From Patescibacteria group bacterium (GTDB lineage: Bacteria; Patescibacteriota; Minisyncoccia; UBA6257; GWB1-50-10), in assembly GCA_030017555.1 (NCBI GenBank), contig JASEIC010000001.1:2571-66570 (forward strand): a stretch of DNA of 64,000 bases. Reading direction: 5' to 3'. Each line of letters begins with the position of its first letter. The stretch's first letter is position 1. Shown here one piece after another: positions 2,357 through 63,068 of the stretch. A program made the position numbers and the translations under genes. The notes under the pieces were generated by a model that saw only the letters and a program-made list of their open reading frames with translations, ran no database searches and had not been told where the DNA came from.

Positions 2357-2941
2357 CTATCTTACTAATAATAACTCACTTAAAGGAATTTTTGTACGGC
2401 AGTTTGCGCATAAATAAGAATGATCAATTAACGAAAAATAACTTATTTCCTTATCACCGCAGTTTTCGCATTTAGCTGCTTTCGGATCATAACCAAAGAT
2501 TTTAAGAAAAAAACCAAAATCAATAAATGCCTTTTTAAAAACCCTGATAAGCGAATGCCACAAATTGAGATCTGAAACATGAAAAGGCGCGAAAATCTTG
2601 ACAATAAAAGCTAATTCCAAAGCCCGCCTTAAACTGCCCCGATTTTGTCTAAGCAATGAAAACCGGTTTTCGGTCAAAGCGTCGGTTATGGTAAATCCCT
2701 CCTTTTTTACCAATCGTACAGTCACTAAATTCAAAACATCAAGATGGGGAGAAAATTTCGAGAGCGGCTTTCGCCCCGCAATAACCTTAGCCGTAATCCG
2801 GCCGAAATCTTTTGTATAAAGTTGAACCTCTCGATCTGTTTCCCGATATGGTTTAATACCCAAAACAATAGCTTCGGTTATATAATCTTTCACAAAATAA
2901 AAAAAATAACTAATAAATAAACAAGCTCCAGTAAGTATCAA
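2357..2941 (-). CDS. recO: DNA repair protein RecO. The true start is probably an internal GTG/TTG near 2893, because the annotated 5' end overlaps the upstream gene.
   Basis: RecO-like N-terminal OB region (GIKPYRETDREVQLYTKDFGRITAKVIAGRK...). C-terminal CxxC...CxxC zinc motif (CENCGDK...CANCRTK). Confidence 0.65.
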   Translation of the reverse strand: MILTGACLFISYFFYFVKDYITEAIVLGIKPYRETDREVQLYTKDFGRITAKVIAGRKPLSKFSPHLDVLNLVTVRLVKKEGFTITDALTENRFSLLRQNRGSLRRALELAFIVKIFAPFHVSDLNLWHSLIRVFKKAFIDFGFFLKIFGYDPKAAKCENCGDKEISYFSLIDHSYLCANCRTKIPLSELLLVR

Positions 2942-3314
2942 GATTATAAATACCGCCGCCGGTAGTCATGAGCAAAAGCGCCGCGCCAGCGATTAAAAGA
3001 TCAAGCTCATAACCATGAATAAAACCTTTTTTCCGGTTGACTTTTAAAATAGCGATTAAAAAACGCGCGAAAACAAGAAAAGCGAAAACTTGAGTCAAGA
3101 ACCCGATGATTAAAGCAACGCCGCCGACAAATTCAACGAGCCCGACAATTGTCCCCCAAAACATACCCGGTTTAAATCCTGTTGTCGCAAAATTTTGGGC
3201 GTTAGTTTTTAAATCTTTTATTTTGGGCCAGCCGTAGACAACTAAAATAACGCCCAAAACAACGCGCAAAATCAAAATCGCCCAATCATTAAAAATCAAT
3301 AAAGGCTGAATCAT
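2910..3314 (-). CDS. DoxX-family small integral membrane protein
   Basis: 134 aa with four hydrophobic helices and a DoxX-like pattern (WAILILRVVLGVILVVYGWPKI...GFKPGMFWGTIVGLVEFVGGVALIIGF). Confidence 0.55.
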   Translation of the reverse strand: MIQPLLIFNDWAILILRVVLGVILVVYGWPKIKDLKTNAQNFATTGFKPGMFWGTIVGLVEFVGGVALIIGFLTQVFAFLVFARFLIAILKVNRKKGFIHGYELDLLIAGAALLLMTTGGGIYNLDTYWSLFIY

Positions 3315-3429
3315 AAAATAAATGAAACAAACGACCTTTCGTTTAAACTATTATAAACTAATTAATTAAAATAAAAAACACCGATGTTATTAAATTAATC
3401 ATCGGCATTTTTAAATATTTTTTAACTTT

Positions 3430-3615
3430 TTACTTTTTTACCAATTCTAATATCCGCTTCAATGTTTCGTTTAAATCATCTAATCCCGCCACAATATTCT
3501 TTAAATATTGGCACGTCAATCCAAAAAAAACAGCAACAACCAACGCTATCCCAGGATCAATGCTTGCAGTTATTAAACTAATTAAAATTATTAAAAAAAC
3601 AAGCCATAAAACCAT
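3430..3615 (-). CDS. Small membrane protein (hypothetical)
   Basis: 61 aa with two hydrophobic helices. Weak support. Confidence 0.3.
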   Translation of the reverse strand: MVLWLVFLIILISLITASIDPGIALVVAVFFGLTCQYLKNIVAGLDDLNETLKRILELVKK

Positions 3616-3815
3616 ATAAACCTTTCCGATTTTTATTTTATAGATTAAGCTTTTACCATTATATAAAGAATCTAAGAATATGTCAAATCAAAATAAAAAA
3701 GGCGCCGATATTCATTGTATCGGTCGCCTTGAAGCCTGTCGCGGCTTTTTGTTAACATATCAAACGGCGTAACCGTTCTCAAATATTAACCCGCCGGCTT
3801 GCAACTCATCGAAAA

Positions 3816-4232
3816 CTATTCCGCGTCTAAAAAATCAAGATCAACAAGTTTACGCTCTAACTTTTCGCCGTCTCTTCTTGTTTCGTAAACTTCACGATAA
3901 GAAATCGTAACCTGTTGTCCTTTTTTAAATCGTTCCCATAATCTTTTGGTTTTTCTCTGGTTTTTTTCAATTATAAAAATTGTGCCGTGCTTTTCGCATC
4001 TAAAAATAACTACGTATTTCTCCGCAACGGAGATACTTGTAAGTTGCAGACCTAACTTACCATCCATATCGATACTAGGACTTAAGCCACTACCATGACG
4101 CGAGGGCACATAAATAAGATCAACAATTTCTCCTTTTTCACGAAGAACTGGTGAGTATTCTTTCTCGGTCGTTACACAACCAGTAAAAACAGATAATACA
4201 AGAACTGTAAATAGAATGCCTACTATTTTCAT
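3816..4232 (-). CDS. Lipoprotein (hypothetical)
   Basis: Signal peptide with lipobox LSVFTGC. 138 aa. Confidence 0.5.
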   Translation of the reverse strand: MKIVGILFTVLVLSVFTGCVTTEKEYSPVLREKGEIVDLIYVPSRHGSGLSPSIDMDGKLGLQLTSISVAEKYVVIFRCEKHGTIFIIEKNQRKTKRLWERFKKGQQVTISYREVYETRRDGEKLERKLVDLDFLDAE

Positions 4233-4356
4233 ACATATTTCTCCTTACATGTCTTTTGAATAGAATTGAATTGTTAATTAAACTCATATAAGTATAGCAT
4301 ACTATAATGCTCATGTCAAGTTTCCAAAAAACGAGGAAAAATCTACTATATTTAAT

Positions 4357-5559
4357 ATGAAAATACTGGCGATTGAAACATCCTGTGATGAAACTGCTTT
4401 GGCTTATATTGAAGCAAGGGACGGAATTACAAAACCGCGATTTAAGATTTTAGAAAATCTTGTTTCATCGCAAATTAATATCCATCGGCCTTGGGGCGGC
4501 GTAGTGCCGAACCTTGCCAAACGCGAACACATAAAAAATCTGCCTTTAATTTTTAAAAAATTCTTTAAAAAACATAAACCGAAACCAAATCTCATGGCTG
4601 TAACCGTCGGGCCTGGACTTGAACCAGCTCTTTGGGCAGGAATTAATTTTGCTCTAACCATTCACAAAGATTATTTCTCGTCCGCCAGCCGGCGAATCCC
4701 GCTTGTCGGCGCAAACCACTTAGAAGGGCATCTTCATAGTTTTTTACTGCCAAAAACAACTGGCGAAGAAATTTTAAAGAAAAGAGGGTTAAAATTTATT
4801 TTTCCGGCGGTGGCGCTTGTGGTAAGCGGCGGGCACACGATTTTACTTTTAATGAAATCGCTCACTGATTGGAAAAAATTAGGCGAAACCCGAGACGATG
4901 CTGTTGGCGAAGCATTTGATAAAGTGGCGAAAATGCTAAATCTTCCTTATCCCGGCGGACCGGAAATCTCCCGTCTCGCTTTAACCGGCGATTCCAAAGC
5001 CATTAAATTCCCCCGCCCAATGATTAATTCGGAAAGTTATGATTTTAGTTTTTCGGGACTCAAAACATCCGTACTTTATTTTCTCAAAAACAATGAAGCT
5101 AAAATTGTTTTTGATATGGGCATGTCCAAAACGCGTTCAAAAATCAACGAACGAATAGAAAATTTACCGGGCGCCCGCGCGCGAAGCAAACAGGGCGGTA
5201 AATTTTCGTCTATGAGCGAGTTAGATTTTAACGCGCGTGGACTTGCAAATAAAAAAATAATTTTAGCTGACATAGCCGCAAGCTTTCAACAAGCCGCTAT
5301 TGATGCTTTGGTCAAAAAAACAATGCGCGCTGCCAATGAATTCAGGATAAAATCAATTCTTCTTTCTGGCGGCGTGGCTGCCAACAAACTACTCCGTGAA
5401 ACTTTGATAAAAGAAACCAAAAACAATAACTTAAACTTTTTTGTGCCGCCGATAAATTTTAACACTGACAATGCCGTCATGATCGCCGTCGCGGCGTATA
5501 TTAACTTTTTAAAAAACAAAAAATATCCGCTTCGTGCCAATGGAATTTTAAATTTATAA
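4357..5559 (+). CDS. tsaD: tRNA N6-adenosine threonylcarbamoyltransferase TsaD (Kae1/YgjD family) with a lineage-specific insertion
   Basis: MKILAIETSCDETALAYIE N-terminus, GANHLEGHL metal-binding motif, and C-terminal SGGVAANKLLRE. Confidence 0.85.
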   Translation: MKILAIETSCDETALAYIEARDGITKPRFKILENLVSSQINIHRPWGGVVPNLAKREHIKNLPLIFKKFFKKHKPKPNLMAVTVGPGLEPALWAGINFALTIHKDYFSSASRRIPLVGANHLEGHLHSFLLPKTTGEEILKKRGLKFIFPAVALVVSGGHTILLLMKSLTDWKKLGETRDDAVGEAFDKVAKMLNLPYPGGPEISRLALTGDSKAIKFPRPMINSESYDFSFSGLKTSVLYFLKNNEAKIVFDMGMSKTRSKINERIENLPGARARSKQGGKFSSMSELDFNARGLANKKIILADIAASFQQAAIDALVKKTMRAANEFRIKSILLSGGVAANKLLRETLIKETKNNNLNFFVPPINFNTDNAVMIAVAAYINFLKNKKYPLRANGILNL

Positions 5560-12524: not shown

Positions 12525-12827
12525 ATGATTAAAGAAAACAGCGACTTTATTTTAGCTTATTTTAAAGATGACCATGGCAGGATTTTAAGAGTGCGCATCC
12601 ATAAGCCTAATATGCTTATAAGTGTATCAGTTTTTAATGAAAAACCGCCGAGGAAAAAAGGTCCGCGAATTCGAGATATGGTTCATGTTTATTTCCCGAA
12701 AGCAACTTTTGAGGAAGTAAAAAAAGATCCTGGAATGGAACTTGGCACATTCGAAATTTTAGAAAAAGAAGCGAAAAAATGCTCAATTACCCGTAGGACA
12801 AAACGCGCCAGAAAATTTCCAGTATAA
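12525..12827 (+). CDS. Hypothetical 100-aa protein with its own consensus promoter and strong terminator
   Basis: ORF between the promoter above and hairpin terminator 12838..12885 (aaatccctcatcctttt...aaaaggatgagggattt + T-run). Confidence 0.45.
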   Translation: MIKENSDFILAYFKDDHGRILRVRIHKPNMLISVSVFNEKPPRKKGPRIRDMVHVYFPKATFEEVKKDPGMELGTFEILEKEAKKCSITRRTKRARKFPV

Positions 12828-12837
12828 ATTTTAATCA

Positions 12838-12885
12838 AATCCCTCATCCTTTTATACAAAAGGATGAGGGATTTATTTTTTCTTA
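12838..12885 (+). terminator. Intrinsic terminator (17-bp stem plus T-run)
   Basis: aaatccctcatcctttt atacaa aaaaggatgagggattt followed by attttttc. Confidence 0.7.
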
Positions 12886-12942: not shown

Positions 12943-13320
12943 TTATATGTTTTCATAGTGATTTACCGCAAAATCATCTTTATTTTTTATCAAAGCAAGC
13001 ACATCAAGCCGCCATCCCTTTTTGTCATCTACTAAATCTTTGCGATGGCCGGCGTAAAGCGATGCGGCTTTTTTGAATTTTCGTATTTTGGCCGCGGTCA
13101 TTTGATGTTCTGGTTTAAGCCCAAAATCACCTGACTCGTACATTGTTTTAACTTCCACAAAAACCAAGATGCCGTCTTTGTTTTTTGCCACAATATCAAG
13201 TTCACCCCAAGGCCGTTTAAAATTTCTCTCAATGATCCAAAATCCCTTTCCCGCAAGATACACACACGCAAAATCCTCACCGATTTTACCCAATGAAATT
13301 TTATCTGAATTATTTGACAC
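12943..13320 (-). CDS. yraN: YraN-family (UPF0102) endonuclease
   Basis: GEDFACVYLAGKGFWIIERNFKRPWGELDIVAKNKDGILVFVEVKT matches the YraN signature. Confidence 0.7.
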   Translation of the reverse strand: MSNNSDKISLGKIGEDFACVYLAGKGFWIIERNFKRPWGELDIVAKNKDGILVFVEVKTMYESGDFGLKPEHQMTAAKIRKFKKAASLYAGHRKDLVDDKKGWRLDVLALIKNKDDFAVNHYENI

Positions 13321-53192: not shown

Positions 53193-53630
53193 ATGAAAAT
53201 GAAACGGAAAAAAATAATTATTTTCTCGTTTATTCTAATATCGGTTATTTTTCTTATTGCTTTGGCTGTTTTTGCAATCCCGGAACAAACAACCGCCCAG
53301 CTTTCTTCTCTTTTTATAAAACCTTTCGGCGGGAGAGTAACGATTACCAATATACCGCCTTTGATACAATGCGGGCTCAGTACAGAAGTTTTTTTAATAC
53401 TGCCAGCCGGTATTTCATCGGCCGGCCCTTTCGTTGCTTTGCCGTCAACTAAACGCTATGGCATTTGGAGCCAATTCTTCGGCGTTGCCCCTTTGCCGCC
53501 ACGCGCCATAAAAGGACTTTATACCCCTTTCGCAATCCCTTGCTTCACCAACACCGCTCCGCCAGCGCCAGCTCCGCCTCCATTTACAACAGCTTTTCCA
53601 ATTATTCTGTTTGGCACCTCGCTTTTCTGA
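53193..53630 (+). CDS. Small N-anchored Pro-rich protein (hypothetical)
   Basis: TM IIIFSFILISVIFLIALAVFA followed by a Pro-rich C-terminus. Confidence 0.4.
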   Translation: MKMKRKKIIIFSFILISVIFLIALAVFAIPEQTTAQLSSLFIKPFGGRVTITNIPPLIQCGLSTEVFLILPAGISSAGPFVALPSTKRYGIWSQFFGVAPLPPRAIKGLYTPFAIPCFTNTAPPAPAPPPFTTAFPIILFGTSLF

Positions 53631-53777
53631 AAAATGAATCCCTCACCCTCCAAAGATTGTTTAACATAAAAACAAAAAATATTCCTATGAATTACAAGCA
53701 ATTAAAAACAACAAGTTTCAAAACGCTTCTCTGGTCGCGAAGCGACTTTATCTTTGAAAGGTGAGGGATGAAATTTT
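53631..53777. mobile_element. Miniature inverted-repeat element (copy A, no ORF) of the tccctcaccc/gggtgaggga family. The right repeat provides the stop, SD and ATG of the downstream gene.
   Basis: Left aaaatgaatccctcaccctccaaagat (53631-53657) and right atctttgaaaggtgagggatgaaatttt (53750-53777) are imperfect inverted repeats around a 92-bp core with an internal gtcgcgaagcgac hairpin. Confidence 0.45.
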
Positions 53778-59738: not shown

Positions 59739-59823
59739 AACACGCCCATGAATCCCGTTAGAAGCAACTAAATCATGAAACCTATAAATACTAAGCATTT
59801 ATCTGAATCAATAAAAGGGATGA

Positions 59824-60121
59824 ATCCCTCACCCTTGAAAAACTAACTGATTATGTTTTACATTTATCTACTAAAATCAAGGCTTAATAATGGTTTTTGT
59901 GTTGGGTTTACGCCTGACTTGAAATCCAGACTGCTAAAACATAATCGGGGAGATGTTTTATCAACAAAACGTTATCTGCCTCGGGAATTAATGTACTATG
60001 AAGCGTATAAATCTAAAAAAGACGCTGTCTTGCGAGAAAAACAGCTTAAACGATTCGCCAAAAGCTTTTCGATGTTAAAACGTCGACTTAAATATTCCTT
60101 GGTTTTTCAAGGGTGAGGGAT
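59824..60121. mobile_element. Inverted-repeat-bounded GIY-YIG cassette (copy B of the tccctcaccc repeat family)
   Basis: 20-bp perfect inverted repeats atccctcacccttgaaaaac (59824-59843) and gtttttcaagggtgagggat (60102-60121) bracket ORF 59853..60116. Confidence 0.5.
59853..60116 (+). CDS. GIY-YIG nuclease-domain protein (YhbQ/UPF0213-like, 87 aa)
   Basis: FYIYLLKS...GFCVGFTPDLKSRLLKHNRG...STKRYLPRELMYYEAY...REKQLK matches GIY-YIG motifs. Its stop TGA lies inside the right repeat. Confidence 0.7.
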   Translation: MFYIYLLKSRLNNGFCVGFTPDLKSRLLKHNRGDVLSTKRYLPRELMYYEAYKSKKDAVLREKQLKRFAKSFSMLKRRLKYSLVFQG

Positions 60122-60617
60122 GAACTTCCAAGTACCGCAATTTATAGACGAACAAGCCAAAATTATCGGCTTTCTTACCTTAAAACAATTTGGTTTTATT
60201 GCCGTCGCCTTCATCACGGCGCTTATTTCTTTTCATTACTTTACTTTTTCTCTTGCTCTTATTATTACCGTAATTGTTGGCGCCTTAGCCATTGCTTTGG
60301 CATTTGGCAAAGTAAACAGCCAACCGTTGCCAAAAGTGATTTTAGCTGGTTTGGGATATTTGTGGAGTCCCAGAACTTATACATGGCAGCGCGCAATGAA
60401 AGAAACCGATCTTGATATTTCCGCTTTAGAAAAATTGGAGACGACAAGAAGAAATATGAGCATTCAAGAAAAAATAAAATCCATCGCCTTATCAATTACC
60501 ACCAGTAAATTCTTGTCGCCAAAACAAATGCGAGAAAATAATGAAAAGAAAAAATACCAAGTGGTTAGTTTTTCAACTGGAGAACGCAAATTTGCCAAAC
60601 GGGTTGACTATAAATAA
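60120..60617 (+). CDS. VirB3/PrgI-like two-TM protein (putative)
   Basis: Two adjacent TM helices (FGFIAVAFITALISFHYFTFSLALIITVIVGALAIALAF), placed upstream of the VirB4-like ATPase. ATG at 60120 lies inside the repeat. Confidence 0.4.
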   Translation: MNFQVPQFIDEQAKIIGFLTLKQFGFIAVAFITALISFHYFTFSLALIITVIVGALAIALAFGKVNSQPLPKVILAGLGYLWSPRTYTWQRAMKETDLDISALEKLETTRRNMSIQEKIKSIALSITTSKFLSPKQMRENNEKKKYQVVSFSTGERKFAKRVDYK

Positions 60618-60666: not shown

Positions 60667-61314
60667 ATGGAACCGGCATTGCCAACTCAAAAATTCGTTG
60701 ATATAAAAAACGTCAAAGACGGCGCGGTTTATCTCAAAAATAACGGCTTACGAAAAATACTGATTGTGAGCGGCGTAAATTTTGATTTAAAATCCGAAGC
60801 CGAACAATCTTTAATCTTAAATACCTTTCAAAACATGTTAAACTCTCTGGACTTTTCAATTCAATTCTTTGTTCATTCCCGCAAAATCAACGTCGACGAA
60901 TACCTCGCAAATATGAGCACGAAAAAAGAAAAAGAACCGAACGAACTTCTCAAAATTCAAATCGAGGAATATGTCGAATTTATTCGTTCGTTTGTTCAAG
61001 AAAATTCTATTATTTCTAAAGCTTTTTTTGCTATCGTTCCTTATGACCCCCAACCGATTACTTCTCAAACACGAGGTTTTTTGAACACTTTTAAAACACT
61101 TGTTAAAAAACCAAGCACAAATAAAGTAGAAGAAGAAAATACTCAAAAAAATCTGGAACAGCTTGACCACCGAGTAAATCAAGTTATTGACGGCTTAGAA
61201 CAAATTGGACTCCGGGCAGTTCCTCTTGAAGATGATGAAATTACCGAACTTTTCTATAATCTTTATAATCCTCAACTTGTTGAAAAAAAAGGTTTAAATA
61301 TCGCAGAAAAATGA
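60667..61314 (+). CDS. Hypothetical protein; possibly the detached N-terminal domain of VirB4
   Basis: 215 aa. 4-nt ATGA overlap with the downstream 585-aa VirB4-like ORF. The combined length of ~800 aa equals a canonical VirB4. Confidence 0.35.
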   Translation: MEPALPTQKFVDIKNVKDGAVYLKNNGLRKILIVSGVNFDLKSEAEQSLILNTFQNMLNSLDFSIQFFVHSRKINVDEYLANMSTKKEKEPNELLKIQIEEYVEFIRSFVQENSIISKAFFAIVPYDPQPITSQTRGFLNTFKTLVKKPSTNKVEEENTQKNLEQLDHRVNQVIDGLEQIGLRAVPLEDDEITELFYNLYNPQLVEKKGLNIAEK

Positions 61315-63068
61315 CAAAAATTAAAATTCCACAACCTTATAAACCGAGCTCTGAAGACGTAGCAAATATTATTGCTCCGGCCGGTCTTGAAGCAAGTCCA
61401 AATTACATGAAATTGGGGGACTATTTTGTTAAAACTCTTTTTATTTTCACTTACCCGAGATATATTTCAAGCGGTTGGTTTTCTCCAATAATTAATCTCG
61501 CGGAAATGATGGATATTTCTATTTTTGTCCACCCAATGGATACGGCTTTAGCGCTTAGAAATTTAAGGAAAAAAGTCGCTCAAATTCAAGCTGAAGCAAG
61601 CGAAAGAGAAGAAAAGGGCCTTGTCCGCGATCCGATTTTAGAAACCGCTCACCAAGACATTGAAAATCTCCGCGACGCTCTCCAGCAAGCCCGGGAAAAA
61701 CTTTATAGGATCGGGGTTTACATAACAATTTACGGCAAAGGCTTGGAAGAATTAAATAAATTGGAAAATAAAATAGAAAACATGCTTGAAGCGAAACTTG
61801 TTTATATAAAACCCGCGCTCTTCCGACAACTTGAAGGTTTTGCCTCAACCCTGCCTCTTTGCCAAGATAAATTATTGATTCATACGGCTTTAAATTCCGG
61901 CCCTTCTTCTTCGCTTTTTCCTTTTGTTTCACCGGACTTAACCTCGGATAAAGGCATCCTTTACGGCGTTAATATGCACAATGCCAGTCTTATAATTTTT
62001 GACCGATTTTCTCTTGAAAACGCCAACACTGTTGTCTTTGCTAAATCCGGCGCGGGCAAATCTTATGCCACTAAACTTCAAATCCTTCGTTCTCTTATGA
62101 TCGGGACAAACGTCATTGTTATTGATCCGGAAAATGAATATCAAAACTTAGCTAACGCGATTGGCGGCAGTTATTTTAAAATTTCTCTAACCTCGCCAAA
62201 CCATGTTAATCCTTTCGACATTCCAATCAGTCCGGAGGGCGAGAAACCGGCTGATGTTTTTAAATCTCATGTTTTGAACTTAACCGGACTAGTAAAATTA
62301 ATGCTCGGCTCTATTACGCCCGAAGAAGACAGCCTTTTAGATCGGGCTATTACTGAAACTTATGCTTCTCGCGATATTACCGCTGAAACATTCGGCGCCA
62401 TAAAAGAATTAAATCCGCCCCTCTTAGAAGATCTGCAGGTTGTTCTTAAAAACACTGAAGGCGGCGCTGGCATTGCTCAACGGCTTGAGAAATTCACTCG
62501 CGGTTCTTACGCTGGTTTTACAAACGCGCCCACCAACGTTGATATAAAAAACCGGTTCATTGTTTTTTCAATAAGAGATTTGGAAGAAGAATTAAGACCC
62601 GTGGCAATGTACATAGTCTTAAATTTTGTCTGGAACTTGGTTCGGTCAGAATTAAAACAACGGCTTATGATTATTGATGAAGCTTGGTGGATGATGAAAT
62701 ACAAAGATTCGGCGGCTTTTCTTTTTGGCCTCGTGAAACGCGCCCGCAAATACTATTTGGGCATTACCACCATCACTCAAGACGTTGAAGATTTCTTGAA
62801 ATCCGATTATGGCCGGCCGATTGTCACTAATTCCTCAATCCAATTTTTGATGAAACAATCAACAACCTCCATTGGTTCGGTTGCTCAAGCTTTTGATCTT
62901 ACCGAGAGCGAAAAAACTTTTTTAGTCGAAGCCGGCGTCGGCGAAGGATTATTTTTTGCCGGCTTAAAACACGTCGCCATAAAAATTATCGCCTCCTTTA
63001 CCGAAGATCAAATTATTACCACCAATCCCGAACAAATGATTGAACTTAAAGGGCTAACTAAAAAATAA
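61311..63068 (+). CDS. VirB4/TrbE/CagE-family type IV secretion ATPase (C-terminal ATPase part)
   Basis: Walker A VVFAKSGAGKSYATKL. NPFD motif. Walker B LMIIDEAWW. RKYYLGITTITQ conserved C-terminal block. Confidence 0.7.
   Translation: MTKIKIPQPYKPSSEDVANIIAPAGLEASPNYMKLGDYFVKTLFIFTYPRYISSGWFSPIINLAEMMDISIFVHPMDTALALRNLRKKVAQIQAEASEREEKGLVRDPILETAHQDIENLRDALQQAREKLYRIGVYITIYGKGLEELNKLENKIENMLEAKLVYIKPALFRQLEGFASTLPLCQDKLLIHTALNSGPSSSLFPFVSPDLTSDKGILYGVNMHNASLIIFDRFSLENANTVVFAKSGAGKSYATKLQILRSLMIGTNVIVIDPENEYQNLANAIGGSYFKISLTSPNHVNPFDIPISPEGEKPADVFKSHVLNLTGLVKLMLGSITPEEDSLLDRAITETYASRDITAETFGAIKELNPPLLEDLQVVLKNTEGGAGIAQRLEKFTRGSYAGFTNAPTNVDIKNRFIVFSIRDLEEELRPVAMYIVLNFVWNLVRSELKQRLMIIDEAWWMMKYKDSAAFLFGLVKRARKYYLGITTITQDVEDFLKSDYGRPIVTNSSIQFLMKQSTTSIGSVAQAFDLTESEKTFLVEAGVGEGLFFAGLKHVAIKIIASFTEDQIITTNPEQMIELKGLTKK

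Follow-up and report, generated by a model that had tools for sequence, protein, structure and literature searches.

A putative mobile GIY-YIG cassette framed by terminal inverted repeats at a start codon in a Patescibacteria genome

Why should the gene of a small nuclease stand between two exact inverted repeats, one of which also carries the stop codon of that gene and the start codon of the next? The question is raised by a locus in the window, that is, the whole stretch of 64,000 nucleotides of Patescibacteria DNA analyzed here. A sequence-only reading of this DNA had described a 20-nt inverted repeat around an 87-aa GIY-YIG ORF, and reading both arms directly bears it out. The left arm (ATCCCTCACCCTTGAAAAAC = atccctcacccttgaaaaac; 59824..59843, + strand), also recovered by a repeat search, has its exact reverse complement in the right arm (GTTTTTCAAGGGTGAGGGAT; 60102..60121, +), and the search extends the pair to 23 nt with 96% complementarity. 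With up to three mismatches allowed, the 20-mer occurs at two sites only in 64 kb, against an expectation of 0.01, and 0 out of 100 shuffled sequences contained two matches. From one host junction to the other the distance is 296 bp, of which the nuclease ORF (59853..60116, +) takes up 264. Within the right arm lie the codons for VFQG, with which the nuclease ends, and the TGA stop (60114-60116) of that ORF; the arm then closes with two bases, AT, that begin the ATG at 60120. The gene opening there was correctly read as VirB3-like, its product matching PrgI.

The junctions themselves carry a direct repeat of 5 nt, ATGAA, at 59820-59824 and 60120-60124, unremarked in the sequence-only reading. 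The left copy (59820..59824, +) is evident from direct reading as a duplicate of the 5 nt with which the PrgI-like gene begins; the corresponding duplicates at other loci are specific to their hosts. It probably marks the original start codon of this gene, with the native A/T-rich leader still ahead of it. The duplicated ATG opens a mini-ORF (MNPSPLKN and a stop; 59820..59846, +), which crosses the entire left arm and stops 6 nt ahead of the nuclease ATG. A second helix was found by the repeat search: its 5' strand (ATTATGTTTTA; 59850..59860, +) includes the nuclease start codon, and its 3' strand (TAAAACATAAT; 59935..59945, +), also seen in the alignment, encodes L-K-H-N. This start-occluding helix also occurs in loci L001, L003, L028 and L114, and 83% of its cells are paired in alignment A3. 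Direct reading also reveals a second copy of the left-junction 9-mer ATGAATCCC 71 nt upstream of the junction (59749..59757, +), and the spacer around it has no similarity to any cassette. Spacers of 50-100 nt to the left of some other cassettes were considered as cassette remnants, an idea that we rejected because their similarity to cassettes is not significant.

The encoded protein consists of the catalytic domain only, as indicated by Pfam, alignment and structure prediction. It matches the Pfam family GIY-YIG (PF01541) over residues 1-69 with 45.3 bits (cutoff 22.6; E = 1.1e-11), and its AF2 model (pLDDT 87.8) has the GIY-YIG fold, a three-stranded sheet with helices, as the catalytic domain, together with one long helix. 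A sequence-specific DNA-binding domain is absent. Foldseek returned 1ZG2 (UPF0213 BH0048) as the best match, followed by Slx1 (7CQ3, 6SEI and 4XM5; probability 1.0), with further matches to the catalytic domain of I-TevI (1LN0) and to UvrC-N (1YD6). In a phmmer search of PDB, 1ZG2 was again the best solved-structure match by sequence (E = 0.019), and 1YWL had an E of 0.18. Judged from these matches, the nuclease appears to be nearest to UPF0213 and Slx1; it may belong with the single-domain proteins of ~85-100 aa such as BH0048/EF2693. Searches with the cassette and nuclease found no match in NCBIfam, PHROGs, PADLOC or Rfam, the last giving no intron at the cassette. The UPF0213-like family is large, with 5,356 clusters at E <= 1e-10, and the GIY-YIG ORFs of the cassette family are under purifying selection (dN/dS 0.05-0.16). 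Y3 and Y5 (the GIY Tyr is thus among the invariant residues), R26, H30 and E50 are invariant in 20 aligned sequences. The Tyr of YIG at position 16 is replaced by Cys in the window copy, alone among the 20, and this copy may therefore be decaying or impaired.

The sequence-only reading had considered that the gene might be a mobile cassette, in which case further pairs of arms should be found elsewhere. Such pairs exist, with and without an ORF. The same arms surround GIY-YIG homologs at ~29 unrelated gene junctions in Patescibacteria MAGs, and every copy is co-oriented with the host genes. In alignment A1 the homology begins with ATCCC and ends with GGGA, while the flanks are unrelated. Homologs that are 64-71% identical are bracketed by the arms at the MreC/MreD junction, at the ProS/MreB junction and upstream of ClpP, and further bracketed cassettes were found in 18 more MAGs and in loci L116-L118. 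The genes downstream of the cassettes are likewise unrelated, encoding a T4SS coupling protein, deformylase, an AI-2E transporter, pilin, a histidine kinase, SMC, L10, a GalT-like protein and T2SSE. The cassettes of L005 and L020 are 96-97% identical within flanks that share no similarity, one identical 84-aa protein occurs in three contexts, and the syntenic loci L001 and L003 have reciprocal empty sites, at which there are no arms. Copy number is low, at about one per genome. No long or short arm pairs were found in viral contigs, and thus there is no sign of a phage vector. Across 119 loci we found neither abutted ends of the AAGGGTGAGGGA-TCCCTCACCCTT type, as a circle or tandem junction would have, nor collapsed solo hairpins.

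The alternative that the sequence-only reading had set against mobility is a fixed gene whose repeats are a shared RBS/terminator palindrome. In a fuller form, the GIY-YIG gene would be a vertically inherited member of a T4SS operon, and the repeat either such a palindrome or a gene-specific regulator of translation. The gene at the insertion site (60120..60617, +), whose start codon is situated at the stem base, encodes 165 aa and matches PrgI (PF12666) with 28.5 bits (cutoff 27); its assignment is also supported by synteny with L008 and with 80 metagenomic loci. PrgI is the VirB3 analog of Gram-positive T4SS. Profile matches identify the ORFs after it (60667-61314 and 61311-63068) as a split VirB4/TraC-like ATPase. 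A fixed gene would agree with the presence of a cassette ahead of a PrgI-like gene both in the window and in L008, and with an arm-like hairpin that occurs as an apparent terminator at 12837-12874. However, neither the gene nor the arms occur in any of the 80 orthologous T4SS loci, 54 of which have a readable PrgI start, including relatives whose VirB4 is 78-82% identical. Moreover, the L008 cassette is more similar to cassettes at other loci (88-90% identity) than to that of the window (68%), with a different type of junction, and the same arms and gene recur at the ~29 unrelated junctions. The expectation of an operon gene without other copies and with conserved synteny is thus contrary to what is found, and we judge the fixed-gene explanation, which we regard as extremely improbable, to be already refuted by these comparisons. 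That a gene invaded an older host hairpin was also rejected, because the orthologous empty sites have no arms. The predicted empty site of the window itself (ATCTGAATCAATAAA N0-30 CTTCCAAGTACCGC) had no exact match in metagenome contigs. These comparisons show that gene and arms have moved together to unrelated sites and that orthologous sites are empty.

Where do the cassettes enter? The right end abuts the downstream ATG at 24 out of 29 junctions. Target duplications measure 5 nt in six of these 29 junctions, 8 nt in one and 0-2 nt in the other 22, so that seven insertions duplicate the first 5-8 nt of the host gene. They are host-specific, for instance ATGAA in the window, ATGGA in L028 and ATGATTGA in L117. 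The left end in many copies adjoins or contains the upstream stop codon, or follows the duplicate of the host start: among 21 loci, in a count that includes duplicates of one locus, the stop is 0 nt from the arm in nine and within the arm in five, and L116 and L118 add one case of each. A mini-ORF crossing the left arm is present in all seven duplicated insertions. At L005, L017 and L019 there is no upstream stop close by, and the start is not duplicated.

The two arms also bear the marks of a helix. Their lengths are 19-20 bp in every copy, and the stem of the arms alone, a 20-bp helix, has a predicted energy of -35 kcal/mol. Folding, which the sequence-only reading had suggested as a check on pairing, gave a z-score of -5.5 at both window sites, i.e., at the cassette and at the ORF-less element described below. 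Covariation, too, supports the pairing strongly. The outer helix is 99.4% paired, with double-sided changes in 5 out of 16 pairs, and the covariation score of 0.214 exceeds that of slid control helices (<=0.051) and was reached in 0 out of 500 shuffles. These substitutions show that arm pairing is kept by compensatory change. In the left arm, the inner 7-8 nt covary with their counterparts on the right, while no variation occurs in the outer 12 nt (TCCCTCACCCTT) among the 21 aligned cassettes of that arm type, although this invariance is inflated because the search pattern demanded exact outer arms. Had RNA pairing alone counted, these 12 bp would be expected to covary; that they are invariant suggests sequence-specific recognition, probably at the DNA level. 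Stem mismatches comprise two G.U and two C.A, without asymmetry between strands, and do not favor selection at the RNA level over selection at the DNA level. Arm families (TCCCTCACC, CCCCTCAC and TCCCGTAGT) follow the protein clades. Arms remain around pseudogenized ORFs in L010, L012, L015 and L017, and are perfect in the first three.

The second pair of arms in the window, also unremarked in the sequence-only reading, has no GIY-YIG ORF between them. ATGAA (53634-53638) comes ahead of its left arm (ATCCCTCACCCTCCAAAGAT; 53638..53657, +), which is placed 8 nt past the upstream stop (53628-53630), and its right arm (ATCTTTGAAAGGTGAGGGAT; 53750..53769, +) carries the ATG at 53768, where an ORF of 269 aa belonging to the same T4SS-like cluster opens. 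A comparable short form without an ORF is found in L006 (5071-5209). The 92-nt interior of the window element has no significant similarity to GIY-YIG cassettes. It would be tempting to see the short forms as internally deleted cassettes, but we rejected this, since local alignment against all cassette interiors was no better than with shuffled sequences (58 and 142 out of 200 shuffles scored as high).

What does the insertion do to the gene behind it? According to the sequence-only reading, the cassette may donate a translation-initiation signal, with a Shine-Dalgarno sequence in the right repeat. The cassette part of that proposal passes every check suggested with it, whereas the donation of a Shine-Dalgarno sequence is doubtful because the genome is SD-poor, with an SD-like tetramer at only 9 of the 51 gene starts in the window, and because GGTGAGGG adjoins the ATG with a spacing of zero; calling it a Shine-Dalgarno sequence is unjustified. 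The nuclease ORF itself is not preceded by an SD-like sequence. The A of the ATG, and all of the sequence leading up to this codon, certainly come from the right arm.

We therefore consider it probable that the region from 59824/5 to 60120/1 is a small selfish mobile cassette, in which a stand-alone gene for an 87-aa GIY-YIG protein is carried inside terminal inverted repeats of 19-20 bp, and which belongs to a family that is spreading among Patescibacteria, enters between the A and the TG of start codons (A/TG) in the orientation of the host gene, forms a stem in RNA that relays translation so as to keep the host gene coupled, and moves by action of the nuclease on the arms. The functional steps of this RNA relay and of nuclease mobility are ones that we infer. 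In the operon transcript, the arms would make a stem of about -35 kcal/mol that loops out the nuclease ORF and buries both ATGs, that of the nuclease and that of the host gene. On entering or crossing the left arm, ribosomes arriving from upstream would melt the stem and so make the right-arm ATG accessible; they could come from the preceding gene, when it terminates at the foot of the stem, or from the mini-ORF opened by the duplicated start codon. The sequence-only reading had also proposed that the paired arms occlude the downstream RBS until the GIY-YIG ORF is translated. Pairing is strongly backed by folding and covariation, and is compatible with mobility; opening by ribosomes on the GIY-YIG ORF is less likely than opening by upstream ones, because the nuclease ATG is itself occluded. 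If upstream ribosomes melt the stem, the host gene would stay translationally coupled to its original upstream signal, and the nuclease would be made at a low, coupled level. An insertion might thereby do almost no harm to a compact genome that is poor in SD sequences. As for the DNA, the cassette may owe its mobility to its nuclease, which would act on the conserved outer 12 bp or on the arm hairpin. The relay cannot be universal, because L005, L017 and L019 have neither stop nor duplicate and the insertions in L014 and L022 come after a terminator-like hairpin.

It is possible, though we would not call it probable, that the repeats are primarily terminal repeats at the DNA level, serving in cis as the ends of a transposon of a new kind, and that their effects on mRNA are a tolerated side effect. 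The nuclease, Slx1-like and possibly structure-specific, would recognize the outer 12 bp, or a hairpin or cruciform in single-stranded or supercoiled DNA, would cut at A/TCCC and GGGA/T, and would drive excision and insertion at A/TG. This explanation overlaps with the mobile cassette preferred above, the main difference being what maintains the stem. It fits an invariant outer 12 bp beside a covarying inner part, arm families that vary together with protein clades, ORF-less derivatives that share the arms only and are thus MITE-like, host-specific duplications at 7 out of 29 junctions, near-identical cassettes in unrelated flanks, and nearest folds in UPF0213 and in Slx1, a nuclease of branched DNA. 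Strand transfer, however, is not a known activity of any GIY-YIG enzyme, the 87-aa protein included. The duplication is absent or short at 22 out of 29 junctions and otherwise 5 or 8 nt, unlike those made by classical transposases. Start-codon placement and the co-orientation of every copy would demand strong selection or a constraint linked to RNA or translation, and perfect arms around dead ORFs, the lack of circle junctions among the 119 loci and about one copy per genome also speak against it.

A second explanation places the function of the stem in RNA processing, and we think it unlikely. Here the stem would be an RNase III site like the IVS of 23S rRNA: the cassette would be cut from the transcript at the 20-bp helix, separating the upstream and downstream messages and leaving the latter with a very short leader ending in AUG, and related GIY-YIG insertions could persist in CPR rRNA genes by the same means. 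The constant, perfect duplex of 19-20 bp in all copies and a right arm that ends exactly at the ATG would suit such a site, and in an SD-poor genome such as this one, initiation could work well on a short or leaderless 5' end. Insertions with 30 GIY-YIG ORFs have been described in CPR rRNA genes as neither group I nor group II introns and as 'outside the context of homing', and RNase III-cleaved IVS are discussed for the same genes (PMC11270868). Cutting within the stem could nevertheless remove or truncate the start region, and the placement of upstream stops and mini-ORFs at the left arm would be left unexplained.

Patescibacteria have tiny, gene-dense genomes in which nearly any insertion would be expected to be lethal. 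The mobile cassette, as we prefer to read it, suggests a route of entry for a parasite: landing at a start codon, it supplies a stop and a start of its own, and its stem keeps the operon junction together. It also offers a testable function for the huge, uncharacterized family of ~90-aa GIY-YIG (UPF0213-like) proteins. More speculatively, and with considerable doubt, we suggest that it represents a class of prokaryotic mobile elements not recognized before. Such an element would be minimal and autonomous, ~290 bp long, with an 87-aa UPF0213/Slx1-type GIY-YIG protein and a 20-bp terminal hairpin. Its nuclease would act on the structure that the ends of the element form and move the element to A/TG of start codons, and the hairpin in RNA, whether it works as a 'translational relay' or is cut by RNase III, would make insertion phenotypically silent. 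Should this be true, selfish mobility would be the function of a large part of the UPF0213-like family, and the non-intron GIY-YIG insertions in CPR rRNA genes would have a candidate explanation. The arrangement also offers a natural blueprint for placing a gene in an operon without polarity, and a marker with which horizontal transfer between uncultivated bacteria can be followed. For annotation, its consequences are false C-terminal tails (ending in IPHP before the stop), N-terminal extensions (beginning with MNPSP) and fused ORFs. Our searches of the literature on GIY-YIG proteins in Patescibacteria, on GIY-YIG with (terminal) inverted repeats and on UPF0213/YhbQ found no description of the cassette.

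How, then, does it compare with known systems? Intronless homing by the seg genes of T4-like phages offers one parallel: a nuclease gene lies between host genes, outside any intron or intein, its distribution is patchy among relatives and its copies decay, as a homing cycle predicts. Expression of free-standing phage GIY-YIG genes is, moreover, held back by RNA hairpins that bury the start or by overlap or coupling with the upstream ORF (PMC2988022). However, seg proteins exceed 200 aa and have a DNA-binding domain, whereas the cassette encodes an 87-aa catalytic domain in cellular genomes. Also, seg genes spread allelically through flanking homology and have no terminal inverted repeats, whereas the cassette has a covarying 20-bp repeat, ~29 non-homologous start-codon sites, some duplications and ORF-less derivatives. 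Terminal inverted repeats, short forms reduced to the ends, occasional target duplication and spread to unrelated sites and genomes are shared with insertion sequences and MITEs. In contrast to insertion sequences, the cassette has no DDE, HUH, serine or tyrosine transposase, its sole ORF being the GIY-YIG nuclease; duplication is inconsistent, copy number is about one per genome, orientation and start-codon position are strict, and the arms also serve as coding sequence and supply a stop codon and a start codon.

The rRNA IVS resemble the cassette in their long closing helix, in the occasional presence of an ORF and in their horizontal spread, and the non-intron rRNA insertions of CPR resemble it in carrying GIY-YIG ORFs. 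Such elements, however, are located within helices of rRNA and excised by RNase III, whereas the cassette sits between protein genes in an mRNA operon. Proteins of the UPF0213/COG2827 (YhbQ-like) group share the size and single-domain architecture of the cassette nuclease, and in our literature searches we found no description of mobility, terminal repeats or a link to start codons for them; Slx1, unlike the cassette nuclease, needs Slx4 and a RING domain. Integron cassettes, finally, are also promoterless single genes, co-oriented with the host transcript, with an imperfect inverted repeat that folds, and the attC repeat influences translation of the next cassette. Integron cassettes differ, however, in having attC at the 3' end only and in forming arrays at attI beside an integrase, whereas the cassette described here, with no integrase nearby, has repeats on both sides of its ORF and occurs as single insertions in housekeeping operons.

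The exact 20-nt inverted repeat that the sequence-only reading had placed around an 87-aa GIY-YIG ORF was confirmed. The left arm (ATCCCTCACCCTTGAAAAAC, 59824-59843) has its exact reverse complement at 60102-60121, and the pair can be extended to 23 nt with 96% complementarity. At up to three mismatches, the 20-mer has no further site in the window, whose G+C content is 37.6% (expected count 0.01; two matches in 0 of 100 shuffles). The ORF (59853-60116; Pfam GIY-YIG 45.3 bits vs. a cutoff of 22.6) terminates within the right arm, at TGA 60114-60116, and the final AT of this arm starts the ATG of the next gene at 60120, as had also been read. ATGAA, which had escaped that reading, is present at both junctions (59820-59824 and 60120-60124). 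The next gene encodes a PrgI-family protein (PF12666), the VirB3 analogue of Gram-positive T4SS, and is followed by a TraC/VirB4-like ATPase that is split into an N-terminal ORF (60667-61314) and a P-loop ORF (61311-63068) with a 4-nt overlap. In the syntenic metagenomic locus L008 this ATPase is likewise split, into adjacent ORFs (4350-4988 and 2624-4348), so the split appears to be conserved rather than a sequencing error.

Homologues of the GIY-YIG protein with 64-71% identity sit at unrelated places: between mreC and an mreD-like gene (locus L001), between proS and mreB (L003), and 5' of clpP (L004), all co-oriented with the operon and all between the same repeat. When the cassettes are aligned, similarity runs from ATCCC to GGGA, and the flanks are unrelated. 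A scan of one genome per species for the pattern TCCCTCACCCTT-N(255-285)-AAGGGTGAGGGA recovered 18 loci, one per MAG, each with an intact or broken GIY-YIG ORF and all in Patescibacteria-type MAGs, one of them binned as Nanoarchaeota; short contigs gave three further insertions. The downstream genes are mutually unrelated, encoding a T4SS coupling protein, peptide deformylase, an AI-2E transporter, a T4SS pilin, a histidine kinase, SMC, ribosomal protein L10, a GalT-like enzyme, and a T2SSE ATPase. The arms belong with the gene rather than with the locus. The contig binned as 'Nanoarchaeota archaeon' (L007, JAUYPG010000061.1) carries a typical cassette with an ATGAA duplication, 5' of the AI-2E transporter gene; either the contig was binned wrongly or the cassette has passed between ultra-small bacteria and archaea. 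Seven to nine of 29 insertions lie in T4SS, T2SS, or pilus-type loci (PrgI, coupling proteins, pilins, T2SSE; window 53768 and 60120, and L005, L008, L009, L020, L028, and L111), a share that may stem from co-transfer with DNA-exchange machinery or from target bias.

The proposal of a mobile cassette that lands at start codons is supported by these unrelated sites and by empty orthologous sites. The cassettes of L005 and L020 are 96-97% identical, and that of L008 is 88-90% identical to both, yet their flanks, compared over 1.5 kb to either side, share no nucleotide similarity. L001 and L003 are syntenic (proS-mreB-mreC-mreD-PBP2; proteins 69% identical) and carry the cassette at different junctions, so that each displays the other's site in the empty state (gaaTAAaATGata in L001, an ordinary 75-nt spacer in L003), with no trace of an arm at either. 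As to the site occupied in the window, neither the GIY-YIG gene nor a credible arm was present in 80 orthologous metagenomic T4SS loci (VirB4 56-82% identity; 581 kb), and in 54 of them the PrgI start is visible with at least 110 nt upstream. A lone copy in conserved synteny, which would have spoken for a fixed gene, is thus not what was found. At L031, the closest orthologous locus, the upstream gene closes with ...GNIVDLSE-TAA-a-ATG; the window has the matching C-terminus (...GNIVDLS-TAA), followed by 86 nt, the cassette, and the PrgI-like ORF, whose ATG begins in the right arm. This position is shared with L008 only, and an independent hit there is more likely, since the cassette of L008 is more similar to cassettes elsewhere and its junction differs in type from that of the window.

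Across 29 independent junction pairs, the right end reads GGG followed directly by ATG in 24, the last A of the arm being the A of the start codon, and the last base of the left flank is A in 25. At most loci the upstream stop adjoins the left arm (TAA/TCCC), or the upstream ORF enters the arm and ends there. In seven loci the left junction repeats the opening 5-8 nt of the host gene (ATGAA in five, ATGGA in L028, and ATGATTGA in L117); because the duplicated bases vary with the host gene, this is genuine target duplication and not element sequence. In all seven the duplicate ATG begins a short ORF that traverses the entire left arm, those in the window encoding MNPSPLKN and MNPSPSKDCLT before a stop. 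This anatomy suggests one precise junction (A/TG) and one variable junction. Gene calls are distorted by the cassette, with arm-encoded tails on upstream proteins (...IPHP, ...SLTLEA), N-terminal (...NPSPFQH-M) or C-terminal (...KGEG) extensions of the GIY-YIG ORF, or its fusion to the next gene (L003 3970-3990, L009, L011, L018, and L118; proteins P0010, P0007, and P0095). A second copy of the left-junction 9-mer ATGAATCCC lies at 59749-59757, 71 nt 5' of the real junction, within the 86-nt spacer, which is absent from the closest orthologous loci. In an unrelated family member (P0109) the N-terminus is doubled, 'MNPAPSP...MNPAPSP', which hints at recurrent doubling of the left end.

Further arm pairs occur not only with the GIY-YIG ORF but also without it. 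One such element, not seen in the sequence-only reading, lies at 53638-53769, 6.4 kb 5' of the cassette in the same T4SS-like gene cluster. Its left arm (ATCCCTCACCCT..., 53638-53657) is preceded by ATGAA, as at the cassette, its 92-nt interior has no ORF, and its right arm (...AGGTGAGGGAT, 53750-53769) closes in the ATG (53768) of a 269-aa ORF. Sequence comparison with the cassettes detected no derivation of the two known ORF-less interiors from them. Elsewhere in the window, between convergent ORFs (12525-12827, plus strand; 12943-13320, minus strand), a hairpin at 12837-12874 (AAATCCCTCATCCTTTT-ATAC-AAAAGGATGAGGGATTT, then a T-run) has a stem that matches the cassette arms except at one base in each arm. 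Its appearance is that of a bidirectional terminator; it may represent a collapsed arm pair, or the resemblance may be coincidental, and none similar was found in 119 loci.

The regions of the cassette and the ORF-less element are both predicted to fold with the arms paired (z -5.55 and -5.47, respectively), and no shuffle folded as well. Among 22 aligned cassettes, 99.4% of the cells of the outer helix are paired. The outer 12 pairs are invariant save for one U-A to C-G change in L023; this invariance is partly due to the search pattern, and holds too in loci found via the protein. Compensatory changes are frequent among the inner pairs (a single column has AU 8, CG 7, GC 5, UA 1, and UG 1), and the covariation score of 0.214, vs. 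at most 0.051 in slid controls, was reached in 0 of 500 shuffles. A second helix, in which the GIY-YIG start (ATTATGTTTTA) pairs with the LKHN codons ~75 nt 3', is 83% paired. The arms are intact around pseudogenised ORFs (L010, L012, L015, and L017) and around the two ORF-less interiors. On this comparative evidence, the stem is under selection. More distant relatives retain the architecture with different arm sequences, as in L023 (CCCCTCACCCTT) and in a second arm family (ATCCCGTAGT... / ...ACTACGGGAT; L028, L114, and L119), where the second helix is present again and, in L028 and L114, the final bases are the AT of the next gene's ATG. Arm families go with protein clades. In contigs of Candidatus Scalindua type, one and the same 84-aa GIY-YIG protein is found in three contexts (L111 1900-2560, L112 620-1290, and L113 1210-1745), within a ~440-nt conserved block that also bears a 42-aa ORF, variant arms (ACCCCTCACTTT / AAAGTGTGGGGT), and outer GTAGGGAG-type repeats; relatives of the element therefore exist outside Patescibacteria.

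Purifying selection on the ORF itself is strong (dN/dS 0.05-0.16, also between copies at different sites). Y3, Y5, R26, H30, and E50 are invariant, and the YIG Tyr is kept in 19 of 20 sequences, the exception being a Cys in the window copy, which may therefore be heading to decay. The AlphaFold model, a confident one (pLDDT 87.8), is most like UPF0213 BH0048 (1ZG2), followed in turn by Slx1, a nuclease that acts specifically on branched DNA, and by the I-TevI and UvrC catalytic domains. The protein had no match in NCBIfam, PHROGs, or PADLOC; a profile search returned 23,216 clusters at E <= 1e-3 and 5,356 at E <= 1e-10, and the family is thus very large. A homologue with 52% identity (P0022; L024 2900-3520, also L025-L027) lies in a tRNA array without the arm pair, where a ~75-nt unit (cccgacaaaagcc...ggcattttgacgggcccgcca.aatatctgcttcgcagattttgggcggggagca) is repeated at 2918-2994 and 3368-3440 of L024, after tRNA-like 5' halves.

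That the right arm donates a Shine-Dalgarno sequence, as had been proposed, is doubtful: its GAGGG adjoins the ATG with zero spacer, and the genome is nearly devoid of such sequences, with SD-like tetramers at -18 to -4 of 9 of 51 crude gene starts in the window, two of these nine arm-linked, and 25% G+C in the 20-nt leaders. The alternative proposal, arm pairing in the mRNA that occludes the downstream start, stands as regards pairing, by folding and covariation; its trigger is likelier to be upstream ribosomes than translation of the GIY-YIG ORF. The stem alone (-35 kcal/mol) would hide the host ATG, and together with the second helix it would hide the nuclease ATG. The left arm seems placed to meet ribosomes that end the preceding gene at the stem foot or inside the stem, or that translate a mini-ORF from the gene's original start codon, with its native leader retained. 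By melting the outer stem, these ribosomes would free the right-arm ATG, and ribosomes on the nuclease ORF would stop 4-10 nt 5' of the host ATG. The host gene would thereby retain its original translational input, and nuclease output would be sparing. We infer every step of this from position and covariation.

This melting by upstream ribosomes would not apply to every copy, as L005, L017, and L019 lack an upstream stop close by and L014 and L022 are preceded by a hairpin resembling a terminator, and it leaves the invariance of the outer 12 bp and their clade specificity unexplained. These two features, together with arm-only derivatives and target duplications, suggest that the cognate nuclease also recognises the ends, either as DNA or in hairpin form. 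By analogy with rRNA intervening sequences, it is also possible that RNase III cleaves the 20-bp helix, an attractive idea given that GIY-YIG ORFs have been reported in non-intron insertions of CPR rRNA genes (PMC11270868).

On the sequence evidence, we rate the cassette as a selfish nuclease-gene cassette. It does not qualify as an IS element, having neither a transposase nor a fixed-length duplication, nor as an integron cassette or a group I intron. A search of the literature found no description of such an element, and we would propose a distinct class of mobile element only tentatively. Among described systems, the free-standing seg genes of T4-like phages, also of GIY-YIG type, come closest: they show intronless homing, with starts hidden in hairpins and coupled to the preceding ORF (PMC2988022). 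The cassette differs from them in that its protein is a bare catalytic domain, it resides in cellular genomes, it has terminal inverted repeats, its sites are non-allelic and always at a start codon, and it shows occasional target duplication and arm-only derivatives.
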